64,000 nt of DNA from Spirochaetota bacterium (GTDB lineage Bacteria > Spirochaetota > Spirochaetia > DTKZ01): contig JAOABU010000095.1 in NCBI GenBank assembly GCA_026418195.1, positions 17,964-81,963 on the forward strand, in the 5' to 3' direction. Below, piece after piece: positions 729 to 52,327 of this stretch. The position numbers were made by a program, and so were the translations under genes. Under the pieces are notes generated by a model, which was given only the letters and a program-made list of their open reading frames with translations, was not told the origin of the DNA and did no database searches. Position 1 is the first letter of the stretch, and each line of letters opens with the position of its first letter.

Positions 729-1700
729 CTAGAATCCAAACCTCAAGCTCAGTTCCGCTCCCCAACCTTTCGTGCTGGGGTTGTAGGTGCCGGTCGCACA
801 GAGTTGCAAGAGGAATAGATTGATGTCTAGCCCGCCGGCGAACATCACTGCCCAATCGTTGATGGTAACTTTTGCGGAGGGGCTGAAATTCTGAGGAGTC
901 GCTGTACCCAACTGAGCTTTAAGGCTTCCCTTTGTTTCGTACAGGGCGTTCTGATACCAGAGGGAGGTGCGTAGGAAGGGGGTGAGGATTAAAAGGGTGC
1001 GACTTATCCCTACATCGAATCCGAAGGAGTGAACCCGGGTATCGAGAGAAAGCCCCCCACTGATCTTTAGATCCTGACCCGAATAATCTTGGGTAAACTC
1101 CGTCAGGGTATACTTGAAATGAATGCCCGAATATACATACCCCACCCCTAGAGAAATAGTAGGAAACCAGCCTTTTTCTTTTAAAATGTCTTTCCGAACC
1201 CGGATACCGAAGTTCATCAGACTCGCTTCCAGATCATCGGTTGACACGATTCCACCGGGAACCCCAATACCGGTGAAGATAAAATCCAATCCAATAAGAC
1301 GAAGCCCAAGGGCAAGTTTCAGGGTCGGGAAGGGAAAGATTTCCTTAGATTTGTCGTAGAGATCCCGACCGATCCCGGAACTAGGAATGTTATCGTCCAG
1401 AAGTCCATAGACATCGAGGGTCGTGAACTCAGTATTGTTGCTATCCACGAACTTCAAAATTCCGTCGGATACTACCGCCCCTGCTGTCAAAGCCACATAG
1501 AAGAAATCTCCTTCCAGAGAAGCGACTCCGATTCCAGTTCCAGCTAAATCGTTCTGCTGAACGAAGGGCATCACTTCCCTACCTAGAAGAAGCATTAGTT
1601 TGGAAAAGTCGCTTTCCAGTTGCGCGAACTGAGCGAACACGCCCGTACTAGCCAATACCATGATCAGAGCGATTCCAATTACTAGTTTTTTCATCGTCAC
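729..1700 (-). CDS. Predicted outer-membrane beta-barrel protein (signal peptide, C-terminal ...LRFGF)
   Basis: N-terminal MTMKKLVIGIALIMVLASTGVFAQ signal peptide. The protein ends with an aromatic residue (Phe) after an alternating hydrophobic pattern typical of OMP C-terminal strands. No family recognised. Confidence 0.55.
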   Translation of the reverse strand: MTMKKLVIGIALIMVLASTGVFAQFAQLESDFSKLMLLLGREVMPFVQQNDLAGTGIGVASLEGDFFYVALTAGAVVSDGILKFVDSNNTEFTTLDVYGLLDDNIPSSGIGRDLYDKSKEIFPFPTLKLALGLRLIGLDFIFTGIGVPGGIVSTDDLEASLMNFGIRVRKDILKEKGWFPTISLGVGYVYSGIHFKYTLTEFTQDYSGQDLKISGGLSLDTRVHSFGFDVGISRTLLILTPFLRTSLWYQNALYETKGSLKAQLGTATPQNFSPSAKVTINDWAVMFAGGLDINLFLLQLCATGTYNPSTKGWGAELSLRFGF

Positions 1701-37208: not shown

Positions 37209-37855
37209 TGATCATACGCATTTATCACTTCTGTTTGATAGTACCGTTCTACTCTTTTCGTGTTTATATCATACAGATGAATATGCCCATGAATCAAATA
37301 CTTTGGCTTGAATACCCGCATGAACCAGAGAAAAGCTTTGAATCCTCGGTGACACTGATCCGGTTGATCATGAATCCCAAGGGGTGCGGCATGAGTCAGA
37401 AGGATATCCAAGTACCGGCCATACCAGAGCTTGTTCCATAAAAGTCCGGGAATAAGTTTCAGAATTCTCAGGTACATCTGGAAATCGGTGTACTGGTTTT
37501 CTCCCTCGTTGTATCGCATACTTCCCCCAAGACCTGCGATGAGGAGCCCTTTGATACGAGTTATTTTCCATCCTGTGTGAGTAGCCCCAAAGGTATTCTG
37601 TAACTCTGGGTCGTATTGTTCGATGGAAGAGTAGAGGGACATTTTCTTGTTGAAGAGGGTGAGACTTTTCAGATTATGGTTGCCAAACACGAATACGATG
37701 GGACGGTTTAAGGTAGCTGAGAGAAACCCAAGATATTCCATTGGAAGATCCCCCGCAGAGAGTACCAAATCTATATCCTTGAACCGTTCTTTTACCGTAG
37801 GACTATATACCAGGGGATCGATATGGTCTGCTACACATAGGATCTTGAGTCGCAT
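37175..37855 (-). CDS. Calcineurin-like metallophosphoesterase (YfcE/MJ0936-like)
   Basis: KILCVADHID...LSAGDL...VFVFGNHN...GHIH motifs (D-x-H, GD, GNH, GH). Confidence 0.8.
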   Translation of the reverse strand: MRLKILCVADHIDPLVYSPTVKERFKDIDLVLSAGDLPMEYLGFLSATLNRPIVFVFGNHNLKSLTLFNKKMSLYSSIEQYDPELQNTFGATHTGWKITRIKGLLIAGLGGSMRYNEGENQYTDFQMYLRILKLIPGLLWNKLWYGRYLDILLTHAAPLGIHDQPDQCHRGFKAFLWFMRVFKPKYLIHGHIHLYDINTKRVERYYQTEVINAYDHCVIEIEVKDV

Positions 37856-39234
37856 TAGTTCCGGCGATTCAGTTCTCTTGGAATAGACTTCAATAGTTCC
37901 AGGAGCTTTTCCTTTCCCCAGAGTTCAATAGGACGGGATTCAGCGAACTCCGAGGCCAGCCTGCTGAAGGAGGAACTGGTGAGAATGATTCCTCGGGTGA
38001 CATTCAACTGTTTCATCTGTTCGTGGAGGGATCGAACGGCAGACTCGTCCACGGGATCAGTCGTACGGAGAAACCAGAGGAGCTTGGGAATCTTTCGCGC
38101 GTTTCTCCACTTGGATTGGGCCTCTACTCCCAATATTTGGCATCCATTATGAATTTCTGTCACATCCTGAACACTCAATCCTATGGTGGAAGCCATATTT
38201 TTACACTGGGTAAGGAACTCATCCCTTCCGACGGTGAGAAAATCTTTTACCCGGTCGTCCTGCCGCAAGTCTTGGTACTGGTTGAGCTTCTCTGCGACGT
38301 CCTTAAAATTGGGTTTCTTTATGTAGATAGCTTCCCAGTGTTCAATGGCTCGTTCTAATTCTCGAAGTTTTTCGTAGCAGTAGGCCAAAAAATAGTGAGC
38401 ATAGAGCAGCTCGTTCTCCTCCCCCTCTTTGATGGTTTTCACCGCTCGTTCCAATTCCGAGGCAGCTTTCTCGAAATTGTTCATACTCATGAAACAGGTT
38501 CCTCGTTCGATCAACGCCTTCGTCTTGTAGATAGGATCTTTTTGAGCCTTCTCGAAGGCTGCAAGGGCAGGGGTATAGTCATGGTTCTCTTTCAGGAGTC
38601 GACCCAAGTAAAAGTAGGCTGCAAAGTTTTCTGGGTTTAGCTTCAAAGAAGCTTCCAACGCTTCCTTGCTTTCGATGATTTTTTTTGTCCGATACAGGAC
38701 CATACCAAGGTGAAAATGCGCTTTCCAGTTTTTCGGGTCCAATTCGATGGTCTTTTGATAGAACTCTATAGCTTTGGCCCCTTTGCCCCGTTCTTCGAAT
38801 AGTTGTCCGATGAGAAAATAGTACTCGGGCTGGTTGGGATCCTTTTTCACCAATAGGAGGTATTCCTTTAGCGCTTCCTCTGGTTGATTGAATTTGGTGT
38901 ATAGTTCTGCTATCTTTCTTCTGAAGGGGACTTCTCTACAGAATTCTGTGAACTGACCAAGGGAGTTCACTGTTTTGAGTTCCATTAGGGCTAGTTCTGG
39001 TTTGTTCTCTGCTAGGTACGCTAGTCCGAGGAAATAATGAGCATCCACATTGCGGGGATCTTTTGCGATCATTTTACGGGCTAATCGGATGGCTGCTGCT
39101 GTCTTATTCTGTTTGACTAGGGTTTCCAGAGTAGCGATCTTTTGAGGGATGATGATGGAGCGGATCAAGAAAAAGGCAAGGAAACCGATCCCCACTCCGA
39201 GGATTATTATAGCTATGATCATCAAGGGCATCAT
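37855..39234 (-). CDS. Membrane-anchored TPR-repeat protein with C-terminal Mrr_cat-like restriction-endonuclease-fold domain
   Basis: N-terminal TM helix, about 8 TPR units, then a C-terminal segment (ILGVEAQSKW ... GIILTSSSFSRLASEFAE ... ELWGKEKLLELL) resembling the Mrr catalytic domain. Confidence 0.6.
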   Translation of the reverse strand: MMPLMIIAIIILGVGIGFLAFFLIRSIIIPQKIATLETLVKQNKTAAAIRLARKMIAKDPRNVDAHYFLGLAYLAENKPELALMELKTVNSLGQFTEFCREVPFRRKIAELYTKFNQPEEALKEYLLLVKKDPNQPEYYFLIGQLFEERGKGAKAIEFYQKTIELDPKNWKAHFHLGMVLYRTKKIIESKEALEASLKLNPENFAAYFYLGRLLKENHDYTPALAAFEKAQKDPIYKTKALIERGTCFMSMNNFEKAASELERAVKTIKEGEENELLYAHYFLAYCYEKLRELERAIEHWEAIYIKKPNFKDVAEKLNQYQDLRQDDRVKDFLTVGRDEFLTQCKNMASTIGLSVQDVTEIHNGCQILGVEAQSKWRNARKIPKLLWFLRTTDPVDESAVRSLHEQMKQLNVTRGIILTSSSFSRLASEFAESRPIELWGKEKLLELLKSIPRELNRRN

Positions 39235-39313
39235 GATCCTTCCGCTCCGATTCCGTAAGAGTAAAGTTTTTCCATTTCTCTGTCAAACCATTCTTAATAG
39301 ATCTCTTCCTCCA

Positions 39314-40090
39314 ATGATAGGACTCTGGAGGGTTCTCCTCTTCCTTTTATTCTTCTTAGGGCCGGGAGTCATTGCACAAACTCAAACAGCCTTTCAGGAA
39401 GGGGAAAGATTCTTCCTGAACAACAATCCTCGTTCGGCCATCCCCTTGTTGGAGCAAGCAACCATACAGGAACCAAGAAACGAACGAATCTACCTCTATT
39501 TAGGAATTGCATACGAACAAATAGGAAATTATGACCAGGCCATTCGAGCGATGAAACGTGGCTTAGAGTTTGCTTTGCAATACAAGGATCTATTCTATTT
39601 CAATCTGGGGAACAATCATCTAGCGAAAGGCGAGACAGAGACCGCCATTGAAATGTACACTAAAGCCCTTGAAACGAACGGGTCGCTGGCAGATGCGTTC
39701 TTGAATCGCGCGAATCTGGAAGTGAAACTGGATCGATTATCCGATGCATGGAAAGACTATTCTGCGTACCTGAACCTTGTTCCGGATTCTCCCCAGCGCC
39801 CACAAATCGAACGAATGATGGCCCTCATCCAATCTATCCTGCAAGATCGGGAAGCGAAACGGATCGCAGAGGAAAAGAGAAGGAAAGAGGAAGAGGAGGC
39901 GAGACGGATTGCTGAGGAACGGCGGCGGCAAGAGGAAGAACGGCGAAGGCAAGAGGAGGAGGCCAGACAGAAAGCTCTGTTGGAGGCTGTACTGAGTTCC
40001 TTGAAAGCCTCTACCGAAGGGGTAGGGAACCTTTCAGCAGAAAAAGAAGACATCCGGGAAAAGCGGATAGAAACGGATATTGAAGAATGA
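39314..40090 (+). CDS. Secreted TPR-repeat protein with highly charged R/E/K-rich C-terminal low-complexity tail
   Basis: Signal peptide MIGLWRVLLFLLFFLGPGVIAQ (internal start chosen; the listed start overlaps the divergent gene). TPR repeats. C-terminal RIAEEKRRKEEEEARRIAEERRRQEEERRRQEEEARQ. Confidence 0.6.
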   Translation: MIGLWRVLLFLLFFLGPGVIAQTQTAFQEGERFFLNNNPRSAIPLLEQATIQEPRNERIYLYLGIAYEQIGNYDQAIRAMKRGLEFALQYKDLFYFNLGNNHLAKGETETAIEMYTKALETNGSLADAFLNRANLEVKLDRLSDAWKDYSAYLNLVPDSPQRPQIERMMALIQSILQDREAKRIAEEKRRKEEEEARRIAEERRRQEEERRRQEEEARQKALLEAVLSSLKASTEGVGNLSAEKEDIREKRIETDIEE

Positions 40091-40107
40091 GGGAGGGATC
40101 TTAGACA

Positions 40108-42015
40108 ATGATGGATCGAAAAGTGTGGATTGGGGTAGGAATCCTAGCCCTGATCCTTTTGGCAGGAATCGGGTATGTAGTATTCGGACCCAAGGGGGGG
40201 GCGGTACAATCGGCCCGTAAAAATACCCTTCTTTTAGCAGAGGATTACAGTAAAAGCGGAGAGTATCAACGAGCTTTGGACCTGTTGGATCGGATTCTGA
40301 TCGAGAATGCCAACGATCAAGAGGCGAGGGCGTTGAAAGAAAGGATCCTTGCCGCTAAAAAGCAGGCAGAGGAGGAAGCGAAGAATCGGGAGCTCCAAAC
40401 CTTACAAGCCCAGAAAGAGGCTCTGGAGAAATCCCTTGAACGGTTGGCTAGGACAGCACGACCCACGTCTAGTGAGGACGCAGTGACGAAAATGCTGGAA
40501 GCTCAGCGTCTTCAAGCAGAACAAGAACGAAAGGTGCGAGAGGAGCAAGCTCGGAAGGAGGAAGAAGCGCGATTGGCTAAAATGAATGCCGAGCAGAGAG
40601 CGAGAGAGGAGAAGTTGAAGGCCTTACTCAAGCAAGGGGATGAGGCCCTCCAGATCCCGAACTATCTTCAAGCAAGGAACCTCTATGAAGAGGTGATCCA
40701 GCTAGAGAAGGACTCTTCCCGATCCCCCTATGCTGCAAAGGCGTACGCACGGACGGCAGAAGCTTACTTTCGAGCGAATCCAGAGAGTTCTGAAAATCGC
40801 CAGAAGGCTTTAGAGGCTGCAAATGAAGCGATTAAGCGAGATCCAAACCTATGGGAGCCCTATTTTACTCTAGGGAAGGTGTATGCAGCAGCCCGTAACA
40901 ATGATGCTGCCATTAAAGCTCTTACCGATGCTGCCCGGTTGAATCCTCAGAATGCGGAGATCTTTTTCGAACTAGGAAAGGCACAGTTTAGGGCAGGTTT
41001 ATTCAGAGAGGCTCGGCAGAGTTTCGAAACTTGTGTTCGGTTCGATCCCAATCATTCGGTAGCATACTTTAACCTAGGTGCTACCCTATTGCGTCTCAAA
41101 GAACAGGATAGAGCCTACGAGGCCTTTCTGAAGGCTACGAAGGTAAAGCCGGATTATGGGCGGGCCTATTTTGAAATGGGGGAAATCCTCCGAGGGAAAA
41201 ACGATTTCGCCGATGCAGCCTCCGCGTATGCTCAAGCTTTGAAGTACGAACCACAGGAAGCGAGGAATGCAAGGGGGTTGGCTACCGCTTTGTACAGGAT
41301 GGGAAAACTGGAAGAAGCGGAATCCTGGTTCCAAAAAGCGGTAGAACTGGAACCGGAAAGCGATGTGAACAATTACAACATGGCTTTGATCAAACTGGAG
41401 TTGAAAAAGGCGCAGGAGGGTCTTCCCTATATCACCAAGGCAGTGAAACTTAACCCTCAATCCGCAGAGTATGCGTTCACTATGGGGCAGATCAGTGAAG
41501 CGTTGGGAAGTAAGGAAGGAGCGATTGCTTCCCATCAAAGGGCAATTCAACTGGACAGGAACTACATTAAACCTCGCATCGAGTTAGGTCGGCTGTACGA
41601 TGAGGGGGGACAATATGACAAGGCATTGGAGCATCTACTCAGTGCCTATCGCATCGATCCAGAGTCTGTGGAAGTGAATAACAATTTAGGAAGTGTATAC
41701 CTTCACAAGGAACTGTACCAGGATAGTATCAAGCATTATCTTCGGGCTATTTCCAAGCAACCGAACGTACCCCTCATGCGGTACAACCTAGGGCTAGCGT
41801 ACGTAGGGGCGGGGAATTACACCGAAGCGCGAGACACTTTTCGTCAGTTGCTCAAGATGGATCCTTCCTATTGGGATGCCTATTTTGATCTGGGCAAGGT
41901 ACTGATCACCTTACAGGATAAAGCAGGAGCAAAGGCGATCCTACAGGAACTATTGTCCAAACAACCCAACTATCCAAAACGGAAGGATGTAGAAAGGATT
42001 TTGGGGAGCCTCTAA
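40108..42015 (+). CDS. Membrane-anchored coiled-coil + multi-TPR protein (Lmp1-like architecture)
   Basis: N-terminal TM, then a 150-aa E/K/R/Q-rich coiled coil, then about 12 TPR units. Lies next to mutL, as lmp1 does in Borrelia. Confidence 0.6.
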   Translation: MMDRKVWIGVGILALILLAGIGYVVFGPKGGAVQSARKNTLLLAEDYSKSGEYQRALDLLDRILIENANDQEARALKERILAAKKQAEEEAKNRELQTLQAQKEALEKSLERLARTARPTSSEDAVTKMLEAQRLQAEQERKVREEQARKEEEARLAKMNAEQRAREEKLKALLKQGDEALQIPNYLQARNLYEEVIQLEKDSSRSPYAAKAYARTAEAYFRANPESSENRQKALEAANEAIKRDPNLWEPYFTLGKVYAAARNNDAAIKALTDAARLNPQNAEIFFELGKAQFRAGLFREARQSFETCVRFDPNHSVAYFNLGATLLRLKEQDRAYEAFLKATKVKPDYGRAYFEMGEILRGKNDFADAASAYAQALKYEPQEARNARGLATALYRMGKLEEAESWFQKAVELEPESDVNNYNMALIKLELKKAQEGLPYITKAVKLNPQSAEYAFTMGQISEALGSKEGAIASHQRAIQLDRNYIKPRIELGRLYDEGGQYDKALEHLLSAYRIDPESVEVNNNLGSVYLHKELYQDSIKHYLRAISKQPNVPLMRYNLGLAYVGAGNYTEARDTFRQLLKMDPSYWDAYFDLGKVLITLQDKAGAKAILQELLSKQPNYPKRKDVERILGSL

Positions 42016-42038: not shown

Positions 42039-43811
42039 CTATAGAATTCGGCCTACTCCTCGTAAGAGTTCCTCCCGAGAAATCTGCACCCATAGGGGTC
42101 GTCCATGGGGACATCGGGGATTATCTAGGGAAAACACGTAACGCAAGATTTCGTAAGCAGGGAGAGGGCTAATCCCTTCTCCATCCTTGATAGCTTTCTT
42201 ACAGGCAATCTGGGCAAAGAGTTCCTGTTTTATCCTTTCCAAAGTCCCTGTCTGAGTTTTAACCAAGGTTATCACTTCTTCTTCTGCACCCCGAAACGCT
42301 GAGGGAAGAGCTGTCAAAGCCCAGTTCCCGGAGCGGAGTTTTTCCAGTTGCACCCCTAAGGGTCTTACCTTTGAAGCGTTTTCTAAAAGCCGTGCCTCCT
42401 CTTCTGGATCTACCGATACCTCCAGCGGGATCAATAGAGGCTGAGGAGCGTTGTCCCTACTCAGCTCATCATAGATGAATCGTTCATGGGCAGCATGCTG
42501 ATCCACCAGAAATACAGTATCGTTCCATTCTACCAGCAAGAACAACCCAAATACCTGCCCTTTGTACAGGAAGGGTGCATCGGGAAGGATTGGCGGTTGA
42601 TCTGAGGCTGCTTGTTTCAGGATAGAATCAGCAGACTCATTGAATGCAAGTCCTTGCTTTCCTCCAAAGGAATGAGGAAGTCCCCTTGGAATTGTTGGCG
42701 GTCTAGTTTCCGATCCTTCCCCGACCCAGAGGGAAGCTTGATCCCCTACGGGACTATAACCAGAAAGCTGAAGGTTTCGCAGGGAAGCTCGACCTTGGGA
42801 GAGAAGGTATGAGGAAAGTACCTCCAAGATCCGACTTCGCAGATCCTCCGTGTTTCGGATCCGAGCTTCTTTCTTGGCGGGGTGAATGTTGAAATCGACC
42901 CATTCCGGGTCGATTTCTAGAAACAGGTAACAGATGGGAAAGGTCCCACCAGGCAAGTAGGAAGAGAATGCATACTCAACCCCTTGCAGGAGGGAGAAAT
43001 CCCAGATTCGTCGACGATTCACATAGAGCTGCAGGTGTTTTCGATCCTTCCGGTAGGCTTCGGGAGATCCGGTAACGATCCGGAATCGGAACCCGGTTCC
43101 AGAACCAGATAGTTCATGGAGGGAGCTTTGACGGGTCTCTTCTGGATAGACCTGGGCAATTCGTTCTGTAAGGTGTGAGATAGGAAGAAAATGGGTCAGC
43201 TTACCTTCGATGAATAGTTTGAACTCCCGGTCAGGAAAGGGGAGAGCTTTTTCCAAAAACATGCTCCGGCAGAGGTTCGTTTCCGTGGAGGGGCGTTTCA
43301 GAAACTTCCTTCGGGCTGGAATGGCAAAGAAGAGATCTGAAACGGTGACTACAGTTCCTGGTTTAGCTGCTTGAGGAGTCAGACTGATCAATTGCCCCCC
43401 ATGAACAATCAATCGATGTCCTATTTCTTCTTCGATGGGTTTACTGAGGATCTCCAGCCGAGACACATTGGCTAAAGAAGAGAGAGCTTCCCCTCGGAAT
43501 CCTAGAGTATGGATTCGGAGAAGGTCCTCCTCAGATTCGATCTTCGAGGTTGCATGGGGAAGCCAACAGAGGCGTAAATCCTCCTCCGACATGCCCCAAC
43601 CATTGTCTACTACACGGATAGATTCAATTCCTCCACCTGTAATATGGAGGGAGATCTCCGTGCTTCCTGCATCGAGAGAATTGTCTAAGAGTTCCCGAAC
43701 AGCCGAAGCGGGTCGGTCTATCACTTCACCTGCTGCGATTTTACGGGCAACGGAATCCCGAAGGACCCGTATAGGGGCCCTTCGGATTATAGGTTCAGAG
43801 GACACAGACAA
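42039..43811 (-). CDS. mutL: DNA mismatch repair protein MutL
   Basis: GHKL ATPase N-terminus (ELLDNSLDAGSTEISLHITGGGIESIRVVDNGWGM) and a C-terminal dimerisation/endonuclease region. Confidence 0.9.
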   Translation of the reverse strand: MSVSSEPIIRRAPIRVLRDSVARKIAAGEVIDRPASAVRELLDNSLDAGSTEISLHITGGGIESIRVVDNGWGMSEEDLRLCWLPHATSKIESEEDLLRIHTLGFRGEALSSLANVSRLEILSKPIEEEIGHRLIVHGGQLISLTPQAAKPGTVVTVSDLFFAIPARRKFLKRPSTETNLCRSMFLEKALPFPDREFKLFIEGKLTHFLPISHLTERIAQVYPEETRQSSLHELSGSGTGFRFRIVTGSPEAYRKDRKHLQLYVNRRRIWDFSLLQGVEYAFSSYLPGGTFPICYLFLEIDPEWVDFNIHPAKKEARIRNTEDLRSRILEVLSSYLLSQGRASLRNLQLSGYSPVGDQASLWVGEGSETRPPTIPRGLPHSFGGKQGLAFNESADSILKQAASDQPPILPDAPFLYKGQVFGLFLLVEWNDTVFLVDQHAAHERFIYDELSRDNAPQPLLIPLEVSVDPEEEARLLENASKVRPLGVQLEKLRSGNWALTALPSAFRGAEEEVITLVKTQTGTLERIKQELFAQIACKKAIKDGEGISPLPAYEILRYVFSLDNPRCPHGRPLWVQISREELLRGVGRIL

Positions 43812-43816
43812 AGGTA

Positions 43817-46018
43817 CTAGAAATGGATCCGGGTTTCAATCCCAATGGAGGTGGATCGTTTAGGTTTCCCATCCGTATCGTACAGGATCGCACCGCTGGA
43901 GTCCCGATCCACCGTGGTGGTGAATGAAACGGCCAGATCCAGGGTTGGGGCAATAGGATACACCAGTTCTCCTTTGACTACTGTATTGGCATCGAACAGT
44001 TCTAGGTTCTTGCTTTTCCCATGGAGCAGGGTGGGCACAAATTGAGTTCTTCGATAGAGGAAACTGAATCTCATGCCGCTAAAAGGAGGCACGGGAATCA
44101 AGCCTTTCTCGAGGAGTAGGTATGCATCCAGTTGATCGTTGTCGGAAGTACGAATCGTGCTTCCTTCCATCTCCCAAGGCCAGAAATAGCCTACCTTGAA
44201 GGTGAGTTTCTTGAATAAAGTGAATCCACCGTCCCCATACACTCCCAAGGTGATCGTATCGTATGCCGGGTCCGAGGGGTTGGCCAGGTAATCGAGGATC
44301 TTTTTAGCCTCTAAGGGTCTAGATCGATCGTACAGACTGTCAAAGTATCCTATCCGGAAAACTCCATGGTACTGTCGGTACTCGAGTCGCCAGTTGAAAA
44401 GGGAGATATTCCCCAATGCGCCAGCCATCAGCCCATAGTTCCTTACCTTCAGCTTGCCATCTTCCTGGTGGAAGAGAGCCTTCGTAATGAACCCTTGGGT
44501 TCCCCATACGCTAGCTGGGAAATCCCTTCGCAGATAGGGAATCAATCCCGCGGCGTCGGCAAACAAAACAAAGGTTAATAGATCCCCTTGGAGAATAGGA
44601 AGATCTAGATCTACTGCAAGAGTTACAGGCATGGGGTCCACGTTCCGGATGAGAGGGGATACGGGTGTACTCCCAATCGTGGAAGGTAAATCCCCGGAAG
44701 GATCAGAATCCAGCGCAGCAGAAAAACCCAGTGCCAGTTTCCAGGGATAGAAGGGTCTTAGGTAGATGCGACCAGCAAAGATTTCTGGTTCTGCTAAATC
44801 TGCTGTGAGGGCCTCTAAGCCTATCGGACCTGCATCTATGCCGAGGTTGACACCAACCCTTCGCACAGCAGGAAAATCGGTATCGTTGGCATAGTCTCGA
44901 ACGAGGGAGCCATGACCCACCGTAACGTTATGGATATTCCCAACTTTGAAGAAGAAAGGATCCCGCTGGGAGCCATACTCGATGTATTGAATCTTCAATG
45001 CCAGATCCCGGAATAAGTCCTTCACCCCTTCTTCCGGTTCCTTGTTCCAATTCTTATCGGAGCCGAAGGACCACTCATTGTTTCCCTTGGGGCGATAGTA
45101 ATCGTTCGGGTTGAACAGATCTCCCGAGTAGATGATGGGTAGGTAGAACGCTGCACGTAGTTTGCCTATCGAAAGGGTGGGCTGTAGGATCAACCGCGAA
45201 TAGGTCTGCTCGTTGATGGTAACCGATCCGATTTCCATTGCCAAGCGGTCTTTCAAGAAGTCAAAGGGACCTGGTTTTGGAGAGGGGGGTGGAGATTCCT
45301 GTTTAGGTGGTGCCGGAGGAGGGGTTTCAGCTTTTGGAGGAGGTATGTCCCGGGGCACCTTGGCAGGATCGAGTTTTTCAAAAGTCACATCTTTGAATAA
45401 CTCGTCTATCTGTGCAGGCGTCAACGGGATGGGCTGGAACACAGGGGCAAACACATCCGCTGCGTGTCCTGCGGTTACGGAAATTCGTTCTCCAGTTTTT
45501 CTCGCAAACTCTACCACTCCCTCTCGCACCGCCACCCCTTCCCGGACCCCTTCCATCACTTCCATACCAAAATCGGTTCCCCGCACTCCGCAAACGGCTG
45601 AGGGGGTTCGAACCTCGTAAGCAGTTCCGATTTTCTTGGCCGCTATGGTTCTGAGCTTGCCAGAAGCGAGAGAGAAAACATTGGTATCAGGACTTTTACC
45701 GCCACTGAACGATTCGATTCGAAATTCGGTGTTGCGAGAGAGCTTGAGGATACTCCCGTTGGGGGATAGACGGAGTTCTGCCGTAGAAGCAGTGGTACGG
45801 ATGCGGTCTCCTTCTGAGAGTTGCATTCCCACGTACACTTCCACTACTTTGAAACCATCCGAATCCAGGATCTCGATACCGTTAGGATTGTCGAAGTATT
45901 CTAGAATAGCTACAGGTTTCCCTTGAGCCAATAAGGAAAGGTTGAAACCGATGAGAATCGCCATGAGTAATAGGGCGAATTGCCAAACCTTGATAGCACT
46001 GCTCTGGGTAGTCTTCAT
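43817..46018 (-). CDS. Secreted FecR-domain protein with proline-rich linker and C-terminal predicted beta-barrel/OMP-like domain
   Basis: Signal peptide. FecR-like N-terminal domain (GDRIRTTASTAELRLSPNGSILKLSRNTEFRIE). PPPKAETPPPAPPKQESPPPSPKPGP linker. Ends ...IETRIHF. Confidence 0.55.
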   Translation of the reverse strand: MKTTQSSAIKVWQFALLLMAILIGFNLSLLAQGKPVAILEYFDNPNGIEILDSDGFKVVEVYVGMQLSEGDRIRTTASTAELRLSPNGSILKLSRNTEFRIESFSGGKSPDTNVFSLASGKLRTIAAKKIGTAYEVRTPSAVCGVRGTDFGMEVMEGVREGVAVREGVVEFARKTGERISVTAGHAADVFAPVFQPIPLTPAQIDELFKDVTFEKLDPAKVPRDIPPPKAETPPPAPPKQESPPPSPKPGPFDFLKDRLAMEIGSVTINEQTYSRLILQPTLSIGKLRAAFYLPIIYSGDLFNPNDYYRPKGNNEWSFGSDKNWNKEPEEGVKDLFRDLALKIQYIEYGSQRDPFFFKVGNIHNVTVGHGSLVRDYANDTDFPAVRRVGVNLGIDAGPIGLEALTADLAEPEIFAGRIYLRPFYPWKLALGFSAALDSDPSGDLPSTIGSTPVSPLIRNVDPMPVTLAVDLDLPILQGDLLTFVLFADAAGLIPYLRRDFPASVWGTQGFITKALFHQEDGKLKVRNYGLMAGALGNISLFNWRLEYRQYHGVFRIGYFDSLYDRSRPLEAKKILDYLANPSDPAYDTITLGVYGDGGFTLFKKLTFKVGYFWPWEMEGSTIRTSDNDQLDAYLLLEKGLIPVPPFSGMRFSFLYRRTQFVPTLLHGKSKNLELFDANTVVKGELVYPIAPTLDLAVSFTTTVDRDSSGAILYDTDGKPKRSTSIGIETRIHF

Positions 46019-46031
46019 ACGGATACCTCCA

Positions 46032-47405
46032 TCAGTAGAGGGAAATGGTACTGGAGAGGCCCGAGGTTACGATCCACTTGTTGTCCCCCGGAGCCGAGGG
46101 GTCGTACCGCAAATGATACACTAGGGAAATCACAGCAGGACCGGTTCGATAGTTGATCCGGGCTCGGATCAGGGCATCTTCTCTCCATCTCTGAAAATCC
46201 TTCCAGTCGTCCATATTCTGTTTTTCGTACAGGGCATCGAAGGAGAATCCAGGAACAATTCCTTCCTTCAGAACGAGGATCGCTCTCCAGGTGAAATAGT
46301 TCCCTTCGATTTCTCCCAAGGGCCCTTCTGCATTGGTGGTGAAACTGAGCTTGTCCTGAAGGGCTGAAAATCCCAAAGAAGCAAACCAACCCATTCCTCC
46401 TTTCTTTTCCACTGTACCGTCGTACACTAGGTATTGTAGGGGTCGGAATAGGTCGTAGGAAGCTCCAAAGTAGGTAGGAATAAACTGGTCCTGTAGGTAA
46501 CGCAATTGGGCTCCATATGTCAGGAAGCGAAGCATTCGACCCCCTGTACCTAACATTGCGCCCCATCCTTCTTTCTGGGCAACCCCATCTCCAAACAACG
46601 AAAGGTTGAATAGATCCCCTTTTACGAGCGGAAGTCTGAAATCAATCCCATAAATGAGGACAGTGGCATCCGAAGGGGGAAGCAGGGCAGTAGGGTAGTT
46701 GGAATCTTTCTTTGCAAAATAACCAGGGTCCTGATCCGTAGCGAAAGTCGCTCCGATCTGCAGATCCTTCAGAAGGGGTAACGGTGACCCTACCCATGGT
46801 CGGGTATATAGCCGTGCAGCCACAAGATCAAAGGCAGCAAGATTGGACACAAAGGTTTCTATCCCGATGTAGGGTACTGATACGATACTTCCATCTAGGT
46901 CGAAGCTAAGACCAAAGATTCGAGTTTCGGGTAGGTAAAGAGCGTTGGAGTAGTTCCCTACAATGAACCCATTCCCCAACGTGGCATCTTCAATGGTCCC
47001 CATCTTGATATAGAGGGGATCCCCCTTAATACCGTAGCGGAGGTAACTAATCTTGGGTAGATAGGTTTCCAAGAACTCCTTGAAAGTTCCTACTTCCCAA
47101 TCTTCCCGTCTAACCTCAAATTCATTCCCCGAACTGCCCCCAGTAAACCGGTAATTCAGGATAAAGGAAAATCCAATGGCGAATTTTCCCCATCCGAACT
47201 CAGGGCTCAAGGCCAGGCTTTGGTATGTAATGAACTCAGGCTCGGTGCCTATTCCAGTATATTTTGGATTGGGAAAGTTCTGAACCCCTACCCCTAATCC
47301 TAAGCCAAAGGAAAATCCTGCCTCTGATCCTTCTTTGGATTCTGCATATATCCCGAAGGAACAGAGGAGAAGAACTGTTACCCATAGGATGCGATGGCCT
47401 TTCAT
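46032..47405 (-). CDS. Predicted outer-membrane beta-barrel protein (signal peptide, C-terminal ...ISLY)
   Basis: Signal peptide MKGHRILWVTVLLLCSFGIYAES, a Gly/aromatic-rich alternating pattern, and an aromatic C-terminal residue. Confidence 0.5.
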   Translation of the reverse strand: MKGHRILWVTVLLLCSFGIYAESKEGSEAGFSFGLGLGVGVQNFPNPKYTGIGTEPEFITYQSLALSPEFGWGKFAIGFSFILNYRFTGGSSGNEFEVRREDWEVGTFKEFLETYLPKISYLRYGIKGDPLYIKMGTIEDATLGNGFIVGNYSNALYLPETRIFGLSFDLDGSIVSVPYIGIETFVSNLAAFDLVAARLYTRPWVGSPLPLLKDLQIGATFATDQDPGYFAKKDSNYPTALLPPSDATVLIYGIDFRLPLVKGDLFNLSLFGDGVAQKEGWGAMLGTGGRMLRFLTYGAQLRYLQDQFIPTYFGASYDLFRPLQYLVYDGTVEKKGGMGWFASLGFSALQDKLSFTTNAEGPLGEIEGNYFTWRAILVLKEGIVPGFSFDALYEKQNMDDWKDFQRWREDALIRARINYRTGPAVISLVYHLRYDPSAPGDNKWIVTSGLSSTISLY

Positions 47406-47488
47406 TGAGTCCTCCTTCCAATCATATACGTAATAATATACCGCATTCGCAGAGAACTATTCTAAAGTATACCAGAAGGCAACAGTCA

Positions 47489-50400
47489 TTAAAAGGTAAA
47501 ATGGGCGGAAATCCCTCCCGAAAGCCCTATAAGGATTCGGTATCCAGGTGGAAGCCCTGAGTAATCTTCCTCGAATCCTAGCCCGAGACGGATCTCGGCT
47601 TTAATATAGCCGTATTTAGGGAAGGTGAGGGCTGTTTCGTGCCCAAGTACTAGATACTGCTTCCAGCCTTCCTTGTCTTCGTATCGGTATTCGATCTTTT
47701 CTGTGTGCAGATAGAAGGCTCCCAAGTCTTTAGCTCTACGAAGGGAGGTAGTTCCAAAATCCCTCAGGATCAGACCCTTCCAGGTATACCCTAGAGTTAA
47801 AGATCCCCAGTAAGAAAACCGATCGGTTTCCTCGAGGTAAAGAAAATGCTCCAGCGTAGCTTTCTCGTCTTTTTCACCGAAAAGGGTAACCTTCTGTTGG
47901 GAAGAAATCTTCCACTGCCAGGTAGCTTCCTCTTCTTTGTAAAGGATGGACAGAGTATGCTTATGCTGGTACTCGTCCGTGTACCACCATGCAGAAAAAG
48001 GATACGCTCCGGCCAACCCAAATAGGTTCAACGCAGAGTACAATAGGGAAAGGTCAAACTGGTTGGTGCTAGTAAGAGTATCTTTGGAACGAGAGATGAT
48101 TTTCTTATAAGAACCCTCTCCTTGAGCGGGAACTACGAGGTCCTGCCAGTAAGATCCGTATGAACGAGAGAAAGACACCCCGATTTGGGAAACATACTCG
48201 GCAGAAGTAAGGCCTATGGTGTCAGTGGCAAAGGATGACCATCTGCCGGGGATGATCAGTTCGTAAAATGGATATGAACGGTAGAAATAGGCTTGGTCAT
48301 AGATGGATTCTTTTACTGTAGAGAAATCCGATGGAAAGTCTCCATCCTGAGGTACGGAACGGGTGTTCGTTCCTTGTCTGAGATATGAGACGGTGAATGA
48401 ATTGCCAATCTTCCTATCATGATCTCGGGATCGGAGGGGAACCTCAATCAAGAGTTTTTCCACGGTACGTTGGAGGCCATCTTTTTCACCTGTATTTACA
48501 TAGGATACTTCGGGAGTGATTCGTACTCCCCAAATCTCACTTTCGAGTTGTGTTTCCCAGCGAAAAAGGCCTTCCCGCTGGATGTTCACTCCTGATGTGT
48601 AGGGAAAAACTAACCGGTAGGAATGGATCCAGGAACTTGTATAAGGTTCTCGTCCGAAGGTATACCCTTCTGCGATATGGGAAAGTTTACCCCCAAACCG
48701 AAGAGAAAAAGCCGATATGGGAGTGCTAGATAGTGTTGTATCCCAAGATTGCGTTAATGTTTGGGTTATAAAGGTCGACTCAGCGCCTAGGGAGAGGGCA
48801 AAAGGAGGGCCGATGTTTACCTCTATCCGATTCATTCGACTGAGGAAGGCGTCTTCGGTATGGTAACTCCGTTTGAACTGATCCCGTACAGTTACTAGCC
48901 CGCCTTCTGCAGGAAACTGTAGACGGTGACCTGCTTCATATTGGATTCGATCGGATAGGCGATCGAAGGCAAAGGAACCCTCTGTCCGGAAGAGTCCCAG
49001 AAGGTCTATGGATCCTTCTGTGGAAGAACTTAAAAGGCTAGGGGTTTCTTCTGGGAGCCTGCCCTGGAAAGCTTGGGTGCGAGCGGAAAGCTTTTGTGCA
49101 ACACTTACGTTCCTCAATAGGGGCATGTCACCGATGGTAACTACCGTTCCAGGGATCGAGAAGGATCCTTCCAAAGATCCAGCAAAACCCCATCCTGCTT
49201 GAGGTCTAGACAGGTGAAGCTCGTCTAAGTACACTACTCCATCTTTAGCTCCCGATCCTTCCCATAGGAAACGGGTGAGTTTCCCGAAATTGGTATCCAC
49301 GCGAACATTCGAGAGCTCCCTTCCCCCAAGGTATGCTTTCTTGCGAACAAGATCCACTGTAAACTTTTCCCATCGATTCTCTGCCAAAGCGGGAATCTCA
49401 ACGTAGACTCCCTTTCCTTCCGGATCCGTGTACTGGAAGATGTACCTTGCTTCTGAACTAGTACCTCCTAGAGAGGCTGTGCGAATGTACAGGTTCACCT
49501 CCCGATACTGTTCAGGTGGTATTTCCCGGGTAGGGCTATATAGTACCCATTTATCGCCACTGCCAAGGTTTTTCCACTTTACCTCAAGTACCTTCTGGTC
49601 CGTACCCCCGGAATGGAAAGTTTTAATCCGGTCAGGATCAACCTTTTCTAATTCGATGGAAGGGGGAATATCAGCCAGGGATTCGTAGATCTCCCGAACT
49701 TCCATTTCCCCTCTGCCCACCACCTGATGAGGAAGAGTCGTGCCTTCAAATACGATCGGTCCGATCAGGATTTTCCCTTCTACGGTTCCGGTACCTTCCT
49801 TGCGGATGATGAATCGGACGGAACGAACCGATTTCAACCGGCTCCGTTCCGTGTAGGGGATACGGATCAGGGCGGTTTTCCAGTCTCCCCTCGAGGATGC
49901 ATCTATCAGCAAGCTACCTTCTGAAGAACCAGGGCTTGGAAAAATTAGGTATGGATTCTCTATTTCTAGTATCCCGTTTCGGTTAGCGTCCTCTGAATCC
50001 CGCTGATCGTTTCCCAATCCTTCCTGTCCTGCTCCCACATACAGAGTCAACGTTCCCTGATTGAAGGGAAACCCTCGAGAACTAGCACCCACTTCTTCAT
50101 CCAGTATCCCGTCTCCATCTAAATCTTCACCTATTGCTCCCACCTGGAAATTAAGAGAAGCTTGGGATCCTGTATGGGCGACTACCTTGTATGCGAATCG
50201 GATAGCTGTTACCTCAGAAAGATCTAGGGAAGAGCTGAAACCGGTGCTTAAATTCATCTGAGCCCCCACCCACTCCTCAGAACTGTTGATTTGGTAATCC
50301 AGTACCAGCACCCGATTGAATCCCTCCGAAGAGGCAGATGCAGTGTAAGGGCCGGATAAGGATCCGTTTTCATAGGGGAAGATGGCCCCCGCAGGAGGAT

Positions 50401-52327
50401 TCCATGTGTAGGGATTCAGTACAGTCCCTCCTAAAAGATCTACTGTCTCGTAATTCTTAAAGAAAAGTTTACCCCTGTTGTCTCGATTCAGATTTCCACC
50501 ATAAAAGGCAGGGTCTGGAATGGAAGAGGGAAAGGCGTTATTCTTCGAGATTTCCAGAGTTAAATCGTATCCCTCCATCCCCAGTAGACGTAGGAGCCCG
50601 GAAGTGTCCGGATTGTAGTACACGATAGCTCCATCGGTGGTGAACTTCAGATTTTCCTTTTTATAAGAGACTTGCGTAGAGAGGCCCACGATCCCCGTAT
50701 GATCGGTAGGTTCCGTACTGTAACTCCCTTTCAACACATTCCATCGTACCCCTAAGGCAAACTTGCTTTCCCATGCATCACTCCATCGTACGGAACTTCC
50801 CATCCCAAACAGAATGTCTCCCCCCGCTCCCTGTCCCGATGCCGTGCGATAGTAGATTTCGATCCGGTCTGAGGAGGATGGTTCGTAGGGAAGGCTCACG
50901 GTGCCTTTCTCGTAATCTACACCGAACAATTTTTCCTCTCTTCCATTTCGAAACACCCGGACAGAACCAGGAATTACATCGGTAGATACACTATAGGATT
51001 GAATGGGGGTATACGTTTGAATTAGGATTTCAAAGTCTACTGTGCTCCCAAGCTTTCGGGAATCGGGGCCATATAGGAGGGGAGCTTCCTCGGCGAAGGG
51101 GAAGCGGGCTTGAAAGGAGCGGCGACTTCCCTCGGAGAGGGCCATGCGGATAATGGATTCACTAGGTGAGTATGTAGGTTGGATTGGATAATGGAGGGGA
51201 AGGGTGGTGTCGGATCCTCGTTTTACTACCCGAATTCGGAGATTCGATCCAGTAGAAAGTGAGGTGCTTTGGGTCGCGTACGCTCCATAATCCTGAAAAG
51301 GAGAAAAGGTCCCGGGATCATATAGAAGGAGGGAGGGTTTTCCCCCGATAGTCACTTTGAACCGATCGATAGGAGCATCTAAATAAGGGCTTCTTGACCA
51401 GGAAAAATCTTCTCCTTCTCCAAGGGGATCTATTTGCCAGGGTGCATTGGCATCCGGCTTTACGAAGGGGGGAAGGGCTTTCTTACCTAAAGAGGAGGAA
51501 CCAACGGGTAGGCCTCCCTTCTCATAGTACACTACGACCCTCCCTACCGACGATTTCTGCAAACTCACCAATCCTTCAGAGCGGGATAGGGAAACATCGA
51601 ACTCGGTCGCCCGACGATACCTGCGACCATCGCTACCCAGAAATGATCCTTTATAGTCTTCGAGGTATACTTCGACTGATTCGACTTCAGTGTCGGGTAG
51701 GAGGAAAAACCTTCCTTGGACATAGGCAGAAGGATCGATCCGGAGTTCTTCCACCGAATTTTTCCCAATATAGGTTTTTTTTACTGGTTGAGAGGGGTCG
51801 TATCGGAGGAGAAATTCATGCTGGGTGTGTTCTGTCTGTAGCCGAGCAGCAATTCCGGGCGAACTTCTACTGCCTCCAGGAAAATCCATGTAGGGATATG
51901 GAGAGATCTCGATCCCTTTGTTTCCCGCTCGAATGGATTGAAGCACTTCTCCTTCCTTGCCCTGGTATCCGACAACATAACTATTCAACTGTCGTTTTTC
52001 CTGTAAGGTAGTTTCGAAGAAGTATCGATCCATCAACCAAAGAGCTAAGGTGAGGTTCGGCTTTTGCTCGTAAATCAGGCCATCGGTGAATCCAGGGAAT
52101 ACCGAAGGGTACTGGATTCCTTTTCCAGGAACCACCGCTAACCCAATGGATCCACTTAAAGACGCATCCCAAAACCCGTCCAATCGTAAGTCCACATCCG
52201 CATCTCCTAGTTTCGTCTGAAACACTGTTTCCGGAGCTTCTTTCTCGGGATTTTTAGGGAGTGTCTGGGCAGATAGGAGGTGGGTAAGGAAACAGACAAG
52301 TACAACCTGGAGAATCACTCGTTCCAC
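47489..52327 (-). CDS. Giant (1612 aa) secreted/outer-membrane protein with Ca-binding-like DxDGDG motif and OMP-type C-terminus (...HFTF)
   Basis: Signal peptide MERVILQVVLVCFLTHLLSAQ. DLDGDGILDEE motif. Long uninterrupted ORF. C-terminal aromatic residue after alternating hydrophobics. Confidence 0.6.
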   Translation of the reverse strand: MERVILQVVLVCFLTHLLSAQTLPKNPEKEAPETVFQTKLGDADVDLRLDGFWDASLSGSIGLAVVPGKGIQYPSVFPGFTDGLIYEQKPNLTLALWLMDRYFFETTLQEKRQLNSYVVGYQGKEGEVLQSIRAGNKGIEISPYPYMDFPGGSRSSPGIAARLQTEHTQHEFLLRYDPSQPVKKTYIGKNSVEELRIDPSAYVQGRFFLLPDTEVESVEVYLEDYKGSFLGSDGRRYRRATEFDVSLSRSEGLVSLQKSSVGRVVVYYEKGGLPVGSSSLGKKALPPFVKPDANAPWQIDPLGEGEDFSWSRSPYLDAPIDRFKVTIGGKPSLLLYDPGTFSPFQDYGAYATQSTSLSTGSNLRIRVVKRGSDTTLPLHYPIQPTYSPSESIIRMALSEGSRRSFQARFPFAEEAPLLYGPDSRKLGSTVDFEILIQTYTPIQSYSVSTDVIPGSVRVFRNGREEKLFGVDYEKGTVSLPYEPSSSDRIEIYYRTASGQGAGGDILFGMGSSVRWSDAWESKFALGVRWNVLKGSYSTEPTDHTGIVGLSTQVSYKKENLKFTTDGAIVYYNPDTSGLLRLLGMEGYDLTLEISKNNAFPSSIPDPAFYGGNLNRDNRGKLFFKNYETVDLLGGTVLNPYTWNPPAGAIFPYENGSLSGPYTASASSEGFNRVLVLDYQINSSEEWVGAQMNLSTGFSSSLDLSEVTAIRFAYKVVAHTGSQASLNFQVGAIGEDLDGDGILDEEVGASSRGFPFNQGTLTLYVGAGQEGLGNDQRDSEDANRNGILEIENPYLIFPSPGSSEGSLLIDASSRGDWKTALIRIPYTERSRLKSVRSVRFIIRKEGTGTVEGKILIGPIVFEGTTLPHQVVGRGEMEVREIYESLADIPPSIELEKVDPDRIKTFHSGGTDQKVLEVKWKNLGSGDKWVLYSPTREIPPEQYREVNLYIRTASLGGTSSEARYIFQYTDPEGKGVYVEIPALAENRWEKFTVDLVRKKAYLGGRELSNVRVDTNFGKLTRFLWEGSGAKDGVVYLDELHLSRPQAGWGFAGSLEGSFSIPGTVVTIGDMPLLRNVSVAQKLSARTQAFQGRLPEETPSLLSSSTEGSIDLLGLFRTEGSFAFDRLSDRIQYEAGHRLQFPAEGGLVTVRDQFKRSYHTEDAFLSRMNRIEVNIGPPFALSLGAESTFITQTLTQSWDTTLSSTPISAFSLRFGGKLSHIAEGYTFGREPYTSSWIHSYRLVFPYTSGVNIQREGLFRWETQLESEIWGVRITPEVSYVNTGEKDGLQRTVEKLLIEVPLRSRDHDRKIGNSFTVSYLRQGTNTRSVPQDGDFPSDFSTVKESIYDQAYFYRSYPFYELIIPGRWSSFATDTIGLTSAEYVSQIGVSFSRSYGSYWQDLVVPAQGEGSYKKIISRSKDTLTSTNQFDLSLLYSALNLFGLAGAYPFSAWWYTDEYQHKHTLSILYKEEEATWQWKISSQQKVTLFGEKDEKATLEHFLYLEETDRFSYWGSLTLGYTWKGLILRDFGTTSLRRAKDLGAFYLHTEKIEYRYEDKEGWKQYLVLGHETALTFPKYGYIKAEIRLGLGFEEDYSGLPPGYRILIGLSGGISAHFTF

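Follow-up and report, generated by a model that had tools for sequence, protein, structure and literature searches.

The secretion machinery of type IX (T9SS) is described as confined to the Bacteroidota and the FCB (Fibrobacteres–Chlorobi–Bacteroidetes) group (PMC10994853; PMC12398890). Its outer-membrane translocon in Flavobacterium johnsoniae, SprA (Sov), forms a 36-strand barrel that is capped on the outside and possesses a lateral opening. PorV docks across this opening, its inserted loops binding the C-terminal domain of the cargo, Plug seals the idle pore, and release of PorV together with its cargo requires energy from the GldLM motor (PMC10994853). So far, the SprA fold is known only as a translocon (PMC10994853). 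The locus studied in this work resides on contig JAOABU010000095.1 of a Spirochaetota bacterium, within a window of 64,000 nucleotides, i.e. the whole stretch of DNA that was analyzed. It consists of three consecutive genes for proteins of 1612, 457 and 733 residues, the largest of which is termed the giant in the following. The giant is almost certainly a full-length, shortened and very divergent homologue of SprA. We further put forward, at roughly even chances, that the cluster encodes an outer-membrane translocon of the SprA type which functions independently of the T9SS and has two dedicated barrels as partners. The genes concerned are taken from the list of open reading frames (ORFs):

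47489..52327, minus strand: giant, SprA/Sov-like outer-membrane beta-barrel, putative translocon, 1612 aa, GTG start
46032..47405, minus strand: partner barrel 1, predicted stand-alone outer-membrane beta-barrel, 457 aa (ORF list and AlphaFold2 (AF2) model)
43817..46018, minus strand: partner barrel 2, 733 aa, with signal peptide, FecR domain, proline-rich spacer and barrel
42039..43811, minus strand: mutL, the downstream neighbour in the same direction (ORF list; Pfam DNA_mis_repair and MutL_C on the orthologous neighbours)

The intergenic gaps amount to 83 nt between the genes for the giant and the 457-aa protein, 13 nt between those for the 457-aa and 733-aa proteins and 5 nt between the latter and mutL. 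As mutL lies only 5 nt beyond the 733-aa gene, the run in one direction comprises four genes, not three. A preliminary description of this DNA had given the three minus-strand ORFs, their coordinates and the 13-nt gap correctly and rightly considered the trio consecutive, while its three-gene operon overlooked mutL as the fourth member. The latter is probably co-transcribed with the trio; a functional link is not claimed. A scan for promoters and terminators was uninformative, as it returned fewer matches than shuffled sequence.

All three N-termini, read from the sequence, begin with charged residues, followed by a hydrophobic core and then by an A-Q or A-E site. The C-termini read ...AHFTF for the giant, ...TISLY for the 457-aa and ...TRIHF for the 733-aa protein, and the terminal aromatic residue is kept in each family: F1612 is near-invariant, the relatives of the 457-aa protein end in ISLF/Y and those of the 733-aa protein in ETRIHF. 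This agrees with the signal peptides and the aromatic C-termini of the barrel-assembly type that had been noted earlier. With 66 database clusters and 59 genomic loci for the giant and 1355 representatives for the 457-aa family, the three genes are real and not chance ORFs.

Homology of the giant to SprA/Sov

The giant does not match any Pfam family at E≤1, and the same holds true for 30 members of its family, PF14349 (SprA_N) included; scattered weak Pfam matches of the family to phage tail Dit and DUF2460 were set aside. Among the NCBIfam models, TIGR04189 (T9SS outer-membrane translocon Sov/SprA) is weakly matched by the giant (E 0.017, 12.2 bits, aa 116-210) and also by three of the 30 family members, with a best value of 3.3e-8. 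When two conserved peptides of the giant family were scanned against 185,579 species genomes, 59 loci were retrieved. Forty-five of them are close relatives from Spirochaetia, Spirochaetales, Marispirochaeta, Alkalispirochaeta or Rectinemataceae metagenome-assembled genomes (MAGs), and the remaining loci encode proteins of 1.4-2.0 kaa (thousand amino acids) in Rectinemataceae, Brevinematales, Elusimicrobia and Ignavibacteria. All family sequences originate from MAGs, the taxonomic labelling of which may not be fully accurate. Five distant proteins of 1.7-2.0 kaa were scanned, all of which match TIGR04189 with E-values from 3e-19 to 2.6e-40. The protein from one Ignavibacteria locus, L059, is a genuine SprA (TIGR04189 1e-209, 699.6 bits versus a cut-off of 200), and the hidden Markov model (HMM) of the spirochaete family recognizes it in colinear segments with an E-value of 5e-24 (Z = 1e6). 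In hhalign, a profile built from 12 Spirochaetia sequences only aligned with two genuine SprA proteins at a probability of 99.1% and E 5e-19 over 1398 columns. The alignment spans aa 22-1612 of the giant profile and aa 123-1988 of SprA, i.e. the homology extends over the whole length, at an identity of ~15% between the giant and the Ignavibacteria SprA.

The structural comparison points in the same direction. An AF2 model, which covers aa 413-1612 of the giant and was built with 52 homologues, has a mean pLDDT (predicted local distance difference test) of 85.7 and contains ~31 long antiparallel strands plus an inserted beta-sandwich region. In a Foldseek search of the PDB the top four matches are the SprA chains 8GL8_A, 8GL6_A, 6H3I_A and 6H3J_A with E-values of 1.4e-30 to 1.4e-22 and TMq values (template modelling score, TM) of 0.47-0.50, followed by the next PDB entry at E 1e-7. 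The giant is predicted on the basis of this model to adopt the SprA fold. SprA of F. johnsoniae (6H3I, 6H3J, 8GL8; TIGR04189; PF14349) has a signal peptide, an aromatic C-terminus and soluble beta-sandwich domains inserted between barrel segments in common with the giant, and SprA-like proteins of other phyla share the giant's acidic DxDxDG loops. On the other hand, SprA comprises 2403 aa compared with 1612 aa for the giant, the host of the latter belongs to the Spirochaetota and not to the Bacteroidota/FCB, and the giant is accompanied by two paralogous barrels of an unrelated family.

LptD, BamA and TamB/AsmA are, like the giant, large envelope proteins with signal peptides, and the former two are also large barrels. 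None of these families is matched in Pfam or NCBIfam by any of the three proteins, and the giant model fits LptD (Foldseek E 7e-6, TM 0.17) and BamA (E 5e-3, TM 0.12) far less well than SprA (E 1e-30, TM 0.49). The preliminary description had dismissed the same candidates by eye, and in this respect we concur. It had not recognized, however, what the giant is, and the protein is not an orphan: family profile, HMM, hhalign and Foldseek all tie the protein to SprA/Sov and, being homologous to SprA/Sov over its full length, it belongs with a known kind of system. Its term "uncharacterised envelope machine" remains fair insofar as a T9SS partner was not found nearby and the spirochaete family is unannotated, but misses the kinship with SprA.

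Simple sequence searches of the PDB did not reveal this relationship. Neither the giant (phmmer, no matches) nor the intermediate protein L046 (phmmer, nothing relevant) nor the spirochaete-only profile A1 (a chance match to CdiI only) led to SprA there. The merged profile A4 does reach the PDB sequences of SprA with an E-value of 2e-47; since A4 already includes true SprA, this match arises partly by construction and is not used as primary evidence. The giant family corresponds to 66 database clusters, all of them unnamed or "hypothetical" and without a precomputed Pfam domain. A second profile yielded 39 more clusters of the spirochaete family with the same properties and, as the 40th, a genuine SprA with PF14349 (P0226). 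In the literature, which was incompletely covered, no description of SprA-like proteins or of a T9SS in spirochaetes or Elusimicrobia was found.

A shorter variant of the giant with 1300-1440 aa occurs in MAGs labelled Rectinemataceae and "Treponema sp." (L042:9698-14026; L043:9752-13939; P0187-P0225). As judged from HMM segments, a stretch equivalent to about aa 590-885 of the giant in the window is missing from this variant. All copies are annotated as hypothetical, and a 457-type barrel is not adjacent.

Within the giant itself, the following features can be distinguished:

52268..52327, minus strand: signal peptide, aa 1-20, VERVILQVVLVCFLTHLLSA then QT (hydrophobic N-terminus, read from the sequence)
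50612..50818, minus strand: four long beta-strands of the predicted barrel wall, aa 504-572 (DSSP of the AF2 model, fragment residues 92-160)
49292..50596, minus strand: inserted, mostly beta-sandwich soluble region, aa 578-1012 (short strands and helices in the AF2 model)
50093..50125, minus strand: acidic loop DLDGDGILDEE, aa 735-745, a Ca-binding-like DxDxDG motif (family conservation)
49958..49999, minus strand: second acidic loop DSEDANRNGILEIE, aa 777-790, consensus DSEDxNxNGxLDxE (family conservation)
47492..49279, minus strand: C-terminal barrel region, aa 1017-1612, ~27 long antiparallel strands, ending in ...HFTF (DSSP of the AF2 model)

The A-Q site of the signal peptide is conserved in the family consensus. 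For the region of aa 578-1012, Foldseek returned sub-matches to CBM11 and MAM-type jelly rolls with TMt values of ~0.6; it is colinear with SprA in the alignment and, by analogy, may correspond to the cap or luminal domains of that protein. The DLDGDGILDEE loop had already been pointed out in the giant and could be located at aa 735-745. Residues E734, D735, D737, D739, L742 and D743 are invariant or near-invariant in the giant family, and the loop may bind calcium, judging by its motif. In the second acidic loop, E779, D780, N784 and L787 are conserved. The motif [SGD]ED[LI]D[GNS]D[GN].L also pulled out SprA-like genes of Elusimicrobia and Ignavibacteria. The C-terminal barrel region (fragment residues 605-1198) is modelled with block pLDDT values mostly between 85 and 97 and contributes to the structural match with SprA.

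The two proposed partner barrels

The 457-aa protein does not match any Pfam family. Its AF2 model, built with 43 homologues (pLDDT 87.4, pTM 0.81), is a barrel of roughly 18-20 long antiparallel strands, such that the protein combines a signal-peptide-like N-terminus, a closed antiparallel barrel model and a C-terminal aromatic residue, as is typical of outer-membrane beta-barrels. The best PDB match in Foldseek is AlgE (E 8e-9), followed by porins (probability 1.0 for AlgE and porins alike) and Wzi, with TM values of only ~0.37. The model suggests a generic closed barrel that does not resemble PorV/FadL. An assignment as PorV was rejected: a PorV chain is absent from the top 50 PDB matches and FadL-type proteins score TM 0.15-0.21. 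Nor do the partner barrels match the PorV, PorQ or PorP families of Pfam and NCBIfam at the sequence level. All that PorV (LptO), a FadL-type carrier with 14 strands as opposed to the ~18-20 of the 457-aa barrel, and Plug have in common with the partner barrels is a proposed docking role. PorV is not normally encoded beside sprA in T9SS organisms.

When 1.84 billion representatives (50% identity) were searched exhaustively with a profile, 1355 relatives of the 457-aa protein were retrieved at E≤1e-3, which fall into two architectures of ~450 aa and ~650-720 aa. A probably spurious 183-aa ORF (46015..46566, minus strand) is situated inside the 457-aa gene in another frame and shares 4 nt at its 3' end with the start of the 733-aa gene.

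The 733-aa protein is composed of several parts downstream of its signal peptide:

45509..45808, minus strand: FecR domain, aa 71-170 (PF04773, E 1.5e-10, 41.8 bits, above the cut-off of 24)
45266..45343, minus strand: Pro/Lys/Glu-rich spacer, aa 226-251 (position in the sequence)
43820..45235, minus strand: predicted barrel domain, aa ~262-733 (similarity to the 457-aa protein)

The barrel part is paralogous to the 457-aa protein, as evident from BLASTP (1e-20) and from hhalign (99.9%, E 2.8e-33), which aligned aa 25-456 of the 457-aa protein with aa 249-733 of the 733-aa protein. The FecR-like domain and the proline-rich linker of the preliminary description are thus confirmed by the PF04773 match above the gathering score and by the spacer at aa 226-251, respectively, and the barrel signature and the putative barrel reported there are in line with the barrels now predicted for the 457-aa protein and for the last two thirds of the 733-aa protein. 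The paralogy between the two proteins had escaped notice. Sixteen aligned orthologues of the 733-aa protein exhibit a fixed order of signal peptide, FecR domain, spacer and barrel ending in ETRIHF, the FecR domain being kept in every one of them. Their spacers are of low complexity (Pro/Glu/Lys/Ala) and vary in length from ~25 to 110 aa; an EPEPEP run in one genome resembles the spacer of TonB. The PF04773 domain is shared with anti-sigma FecR and with the Leptospira proteins LipL45, Lsa19 and Lsa33, to which the same region of the 733-aa protein also shows weak NCBIfam matches. The 733-aa protein differs from anti-sigma FecR in that it possesses neither a cytoplasmic anti-sigma domain nor a transmembrane helix; rather, a cleavable signal peptide precedes its FecR domain, which is joined to a barrel via the proline-rich spacer. 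Going by the usual topology of outer-membrane proteins, the FecR domain is predicted to be periplasmic.

The only named relative of this barrel family is ImpL63 from Leptospira (NCBIfam NF047543). The 457-aa and 733-aa proteins of the window match it with E-values of 0.022 and 1.2e-4 (13.4 and 20.9 bits), and intermediate members of the family reach up to E 2.6e-18 and 66 bits, all scores lying far under the equivalog cut-off of 1000 bits, so that the relationship is a remote one only. ImpL63 is described as a cytoplasmic-membrane protein, which upon fractionation is recovered with the protoplasmic cylinder and is used to mark the inner membrane (PMC2698987), whereas the 457-aa and 733-aa proteins are predicted outer-membrane barrels. 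The localization of ImpL63 may merit re-examination, given its remote kinship with a family that models as signal-peptide-bearing beta-barrels.

Gene neighbourhood and alternative readings

Full-length homology to SprA and a matching fold are also what would be expected from the translocon of a bona fide T9SS, the other components of which, GldK/L/M/N, PorV, PorU/Z and cargo tagged with the C-terminal domain (CTD), would be encoded elsewhere in the genome. T9SS genes are indeed normally scattered, and PorV/PorQ-family annotations exist in Brachyspira (bioRxiv 10.1101/2025.01.03.631275). Nevertheless, we regard this explanation as very improbable. No T9SS family was matched among the scanned neighbours in the window, none of the genes for PorV, Plug, the peptidyl-prolyl isomerase PPI, SprE, SkpA and the motor was seen near the giant, and the annotated flanks of two loci, L001 and L061, contain neither a T9SS core gene (GldK/L/M/N or PorK/L/M/N, PorV, PorW/SprE, PorU) nor CTD-tagged cargo. 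The tetratricopeptide repeat (TPR) proteins in the neighbourhood, considered as equivalents of SprE/PorW, attain generic TPR scores only (39-42 bits versus a cut-off of 250), and such a role is not claimed for them. In addition, the giant stays far under the SprA equivalog cut-off, the adjacent barrels are not PorV-like, and the literature restricts the T9SS to Bacteroidota/FCB (PMC10994853; PMC12398890).

The conserved gene order, with genes on the opposite strand in square brackets, is HD hydrolase, ComFB, [ion channel, 320-aa protein], giant, 457-type barrel, FecR-type barrel, mutL, [two TPR proteins]. The succession of giant, 457-type, FecR-type and mutL is present in 18 complete Spirochaetia loci with identities of the giant down to 28%, in four more loci contig ends truncate the trio inside the barrel genes, and the trio-mutL order also occurs on a 3.9-Mb chromosome. 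All complete loci show the adjacency to mutL. Linkage of the trio across divergent Spirochaetia can also be explained differently: the three genes may encode independent outer-membrane proteins, i.e. a large porin or surface antigen and two porins, that are co-located only through inherited gene order and neither form a complex nor serve a dedicated transport function. A neighbourhood of 20 kb with the housekeeping genes mutL, HD and ComFB is syntenic across Spirochaetia, the barrels are missing from the locus in eight lineages, the 457-aa barrel is structurally similar to AlgE and to generic porins, and its family is so large, with 1355 representatives, that it is not restricted to the context of the giant. 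We grant this explanation a small though appreciable chance. It does not readily account for the tight gaps of 13 and 5 nt or for the fact that the SprA fold has been met so far only in a translocon (PMC10994853). Above all, the adjacency of an SprA-like gene and a small barrel recurs in a much deeper lineage with different neighbours (L051, L053 and L054), where a 1.9-kaa SprA-like gene is directly followed by a gene for a small signal-peptide protein ending in F. The latter is a distant member of the 457-type barrel family (hhalign 93.5-96.5%). Since the neighbours otherwise differ in these loci and the pair is still found, they constitute stronger evidence of a partnership than the loci from Spirochaetia, where linkage is only moderate evidence because the whole neighbourhood is syntenic.

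Several observations weigh against a T9SS-independent SprA-type translocon with dedicated partner barrels. The giant scores below the curated SprA thresholds (12.2 versus 200 bits for TIGR04189, PF14349 unmatched) and, failing both, falls outside the curated SprA equivalog family; it is also ~800 aa shorter than SprA of F. johnsoniae. The partner barrels are not PorV/FadL-like, and their best PDB matches are generic ones (AlgE and porins, TM ~0.37). In eight distinct loci the giant is directly followed by mutL and the barrels are absent, which means that the barrels are not obligatorily linked to the giant. Synteny across Spirochaetia extends to the whole neighbourhood of HD, ComFB, ion channel, giant, mutL and TPR genes, and the trio linkage may therefore in part reflect inherited gene order rather than selection. 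Finally, the inner-membrane location of ImpL63 is a caveat for the assignment of the partner barrels to the outer membrane, albeit one that stems from a remote relative.

A further possibility is that the SprA-like barrel serves as the exit for lipid-anchored or glycolipid cargo, such as a lipopolysaccharide (LPS)-like glycolipid or surface lipoproteins, in conjunction with an Lpt-type bridge. In five loci a 1.7-kaa SprA-like gene adjoins lptF/lptG (PF03739, E 1e-62 to 1e-69), namely L057:5501-13030, L055:1993-9483, L056:5660-13123, L058:6312-13714 and L060:3907-11231; in L057 lptF/lptG are located on the same strand directly upstream. These loci stem from MAGs labelled Elusimicrobia, Ignavibacteria and Clostridia, and their TIGR04189 matches (3e-19 to 2.6e-40) remain below the cut-off. 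With a lateral opening like that of SprA, a barrel would appear suited for delivery to the outer leaflet, and the export of surface lipoproteins in spirochaetes is only partly understood. We consider such a function of the giant unlikely. The lpt genes are adjacent neither in the window nor in any Spirochaetia locus, their adjacency belongs to a different subfamily, the taxonomic labels of the MAGs are uncertain, and the structural match of the giant to LptD is poor (TM 0.17). A ComF-like gene follows in L057, L058 and L060, with genes for glyceraldehyde-3-phosphate dehydrogenase (GAPDH) and phosphoglycerate kinase (PGK) after it in L057 and L058. As these genes are conserved there as well, the proximity of lptFG may represent plain synteny; alternatively, it may connect this SprA-like subfamily with the Lpt machinery.

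A genuine SprA (L059:7544-13510, 699.6 bits) and the short, LptFG-adjacent form (L057:7937-13030) were found in two Ignavibacteria MAGs from different species. The two forms may therefore occur side by side in a single class and differ in their roles.

Further genes accompany the cluster. Upstream of and divergent from the giant, the segment 52358-54436 (plus strand) encodes a 320-aa protein, for which no family match was obtained, and a 370-aa Ion_trans channel, the start codons being separated by only ~30-60 nt; the two genes are kept together in most loci. Beyond mutL, three TPR proteins are encoded at 39149-42015 (plus strand) and 37855-39234 (minus strand). One of them, with 635 aa, carries a membrane anchor at its N-terminus as well as a Lys/Glu-rich coiled-coil region and at least eight TPRs and is found together with a 313-aa TPR protein beside mutL in nearly all loci, irrespective of whether the barrels are present. 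At a distance from the cluster (729-1700, minus strand), a 323-aa protein without NCBIfam match is a likely outer-membrane barrel with a signal peptide reading ...ASTGVFA|Q and the C-terminus ...LSLRFGF.

A possible export route and its implications

As a working model for the T9SS-independent translocon, we envisage the giant as a large, capped outer-membrane pore through which periplasmic cargo would exit. Both the pore function and the docking of the barrels are postulated by analogy with SprA. The two smaller paralogous barrels would dock on the giant as dedicated partners and act as carrier, gate or both, in roles analogous to those of PorV and Plug on SprA without being homologous to either. 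On its stiff spacer the FecR domain would reach into the periplasm and could there meet a partner, periplasmic or in the inner membrane, that regulates the system or supplies it with energy. To our knowledge, spirochaetes are not known to possess the motor, ring and sortase of the canonical T9SS, and the system would work without them. What is new here is a putative SprA-type translocon in a new phylum and with new partners, the T9SS motor being probably absent.

More tentatively, and with somewhat less than even chances, SprA-type giant barrels may not be exclusive to the T9SS at all. Rather, an older or parallel, shortened family would work without the GldKLMN motor and ring, in Spirochaetia together with two dedicated paralogous barrels, one of them tethered to a periplasmic FecR domain. 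The hosts of such a family would comprise Spirochaetota (Spirochaetia, Brevinematia and Treponema-related MAGs) and Elusimicrobia, and it could represent an unrecognized route of export across the outer membrane, the cargo of which might be spirochaete surface proteins or lipoproteins.

The T9SS and SprA are treated as a hallmark of the Bacteroidota, and a spirochaete homologue of SprA would extend this distribution. If our proposal is correct, the giant, laterally gated barrel would be a more general module for export across the outer membrane and would provide a handle on the evolution of the T9SS, in which the translocon may have come first and the motor later, or the reverse. A likely role would thereby be assigned to proteins that are now annotated as hypothetical, namely ~66 clusters with a length of 1.6 kaa and more than 1300 barrel clusters. 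For the spirochaetes themselves, the cluster would provide a concrete candidate for the export of proteins or lipoproteins across the outer membrane, a process that is poorly understood in these organisms.

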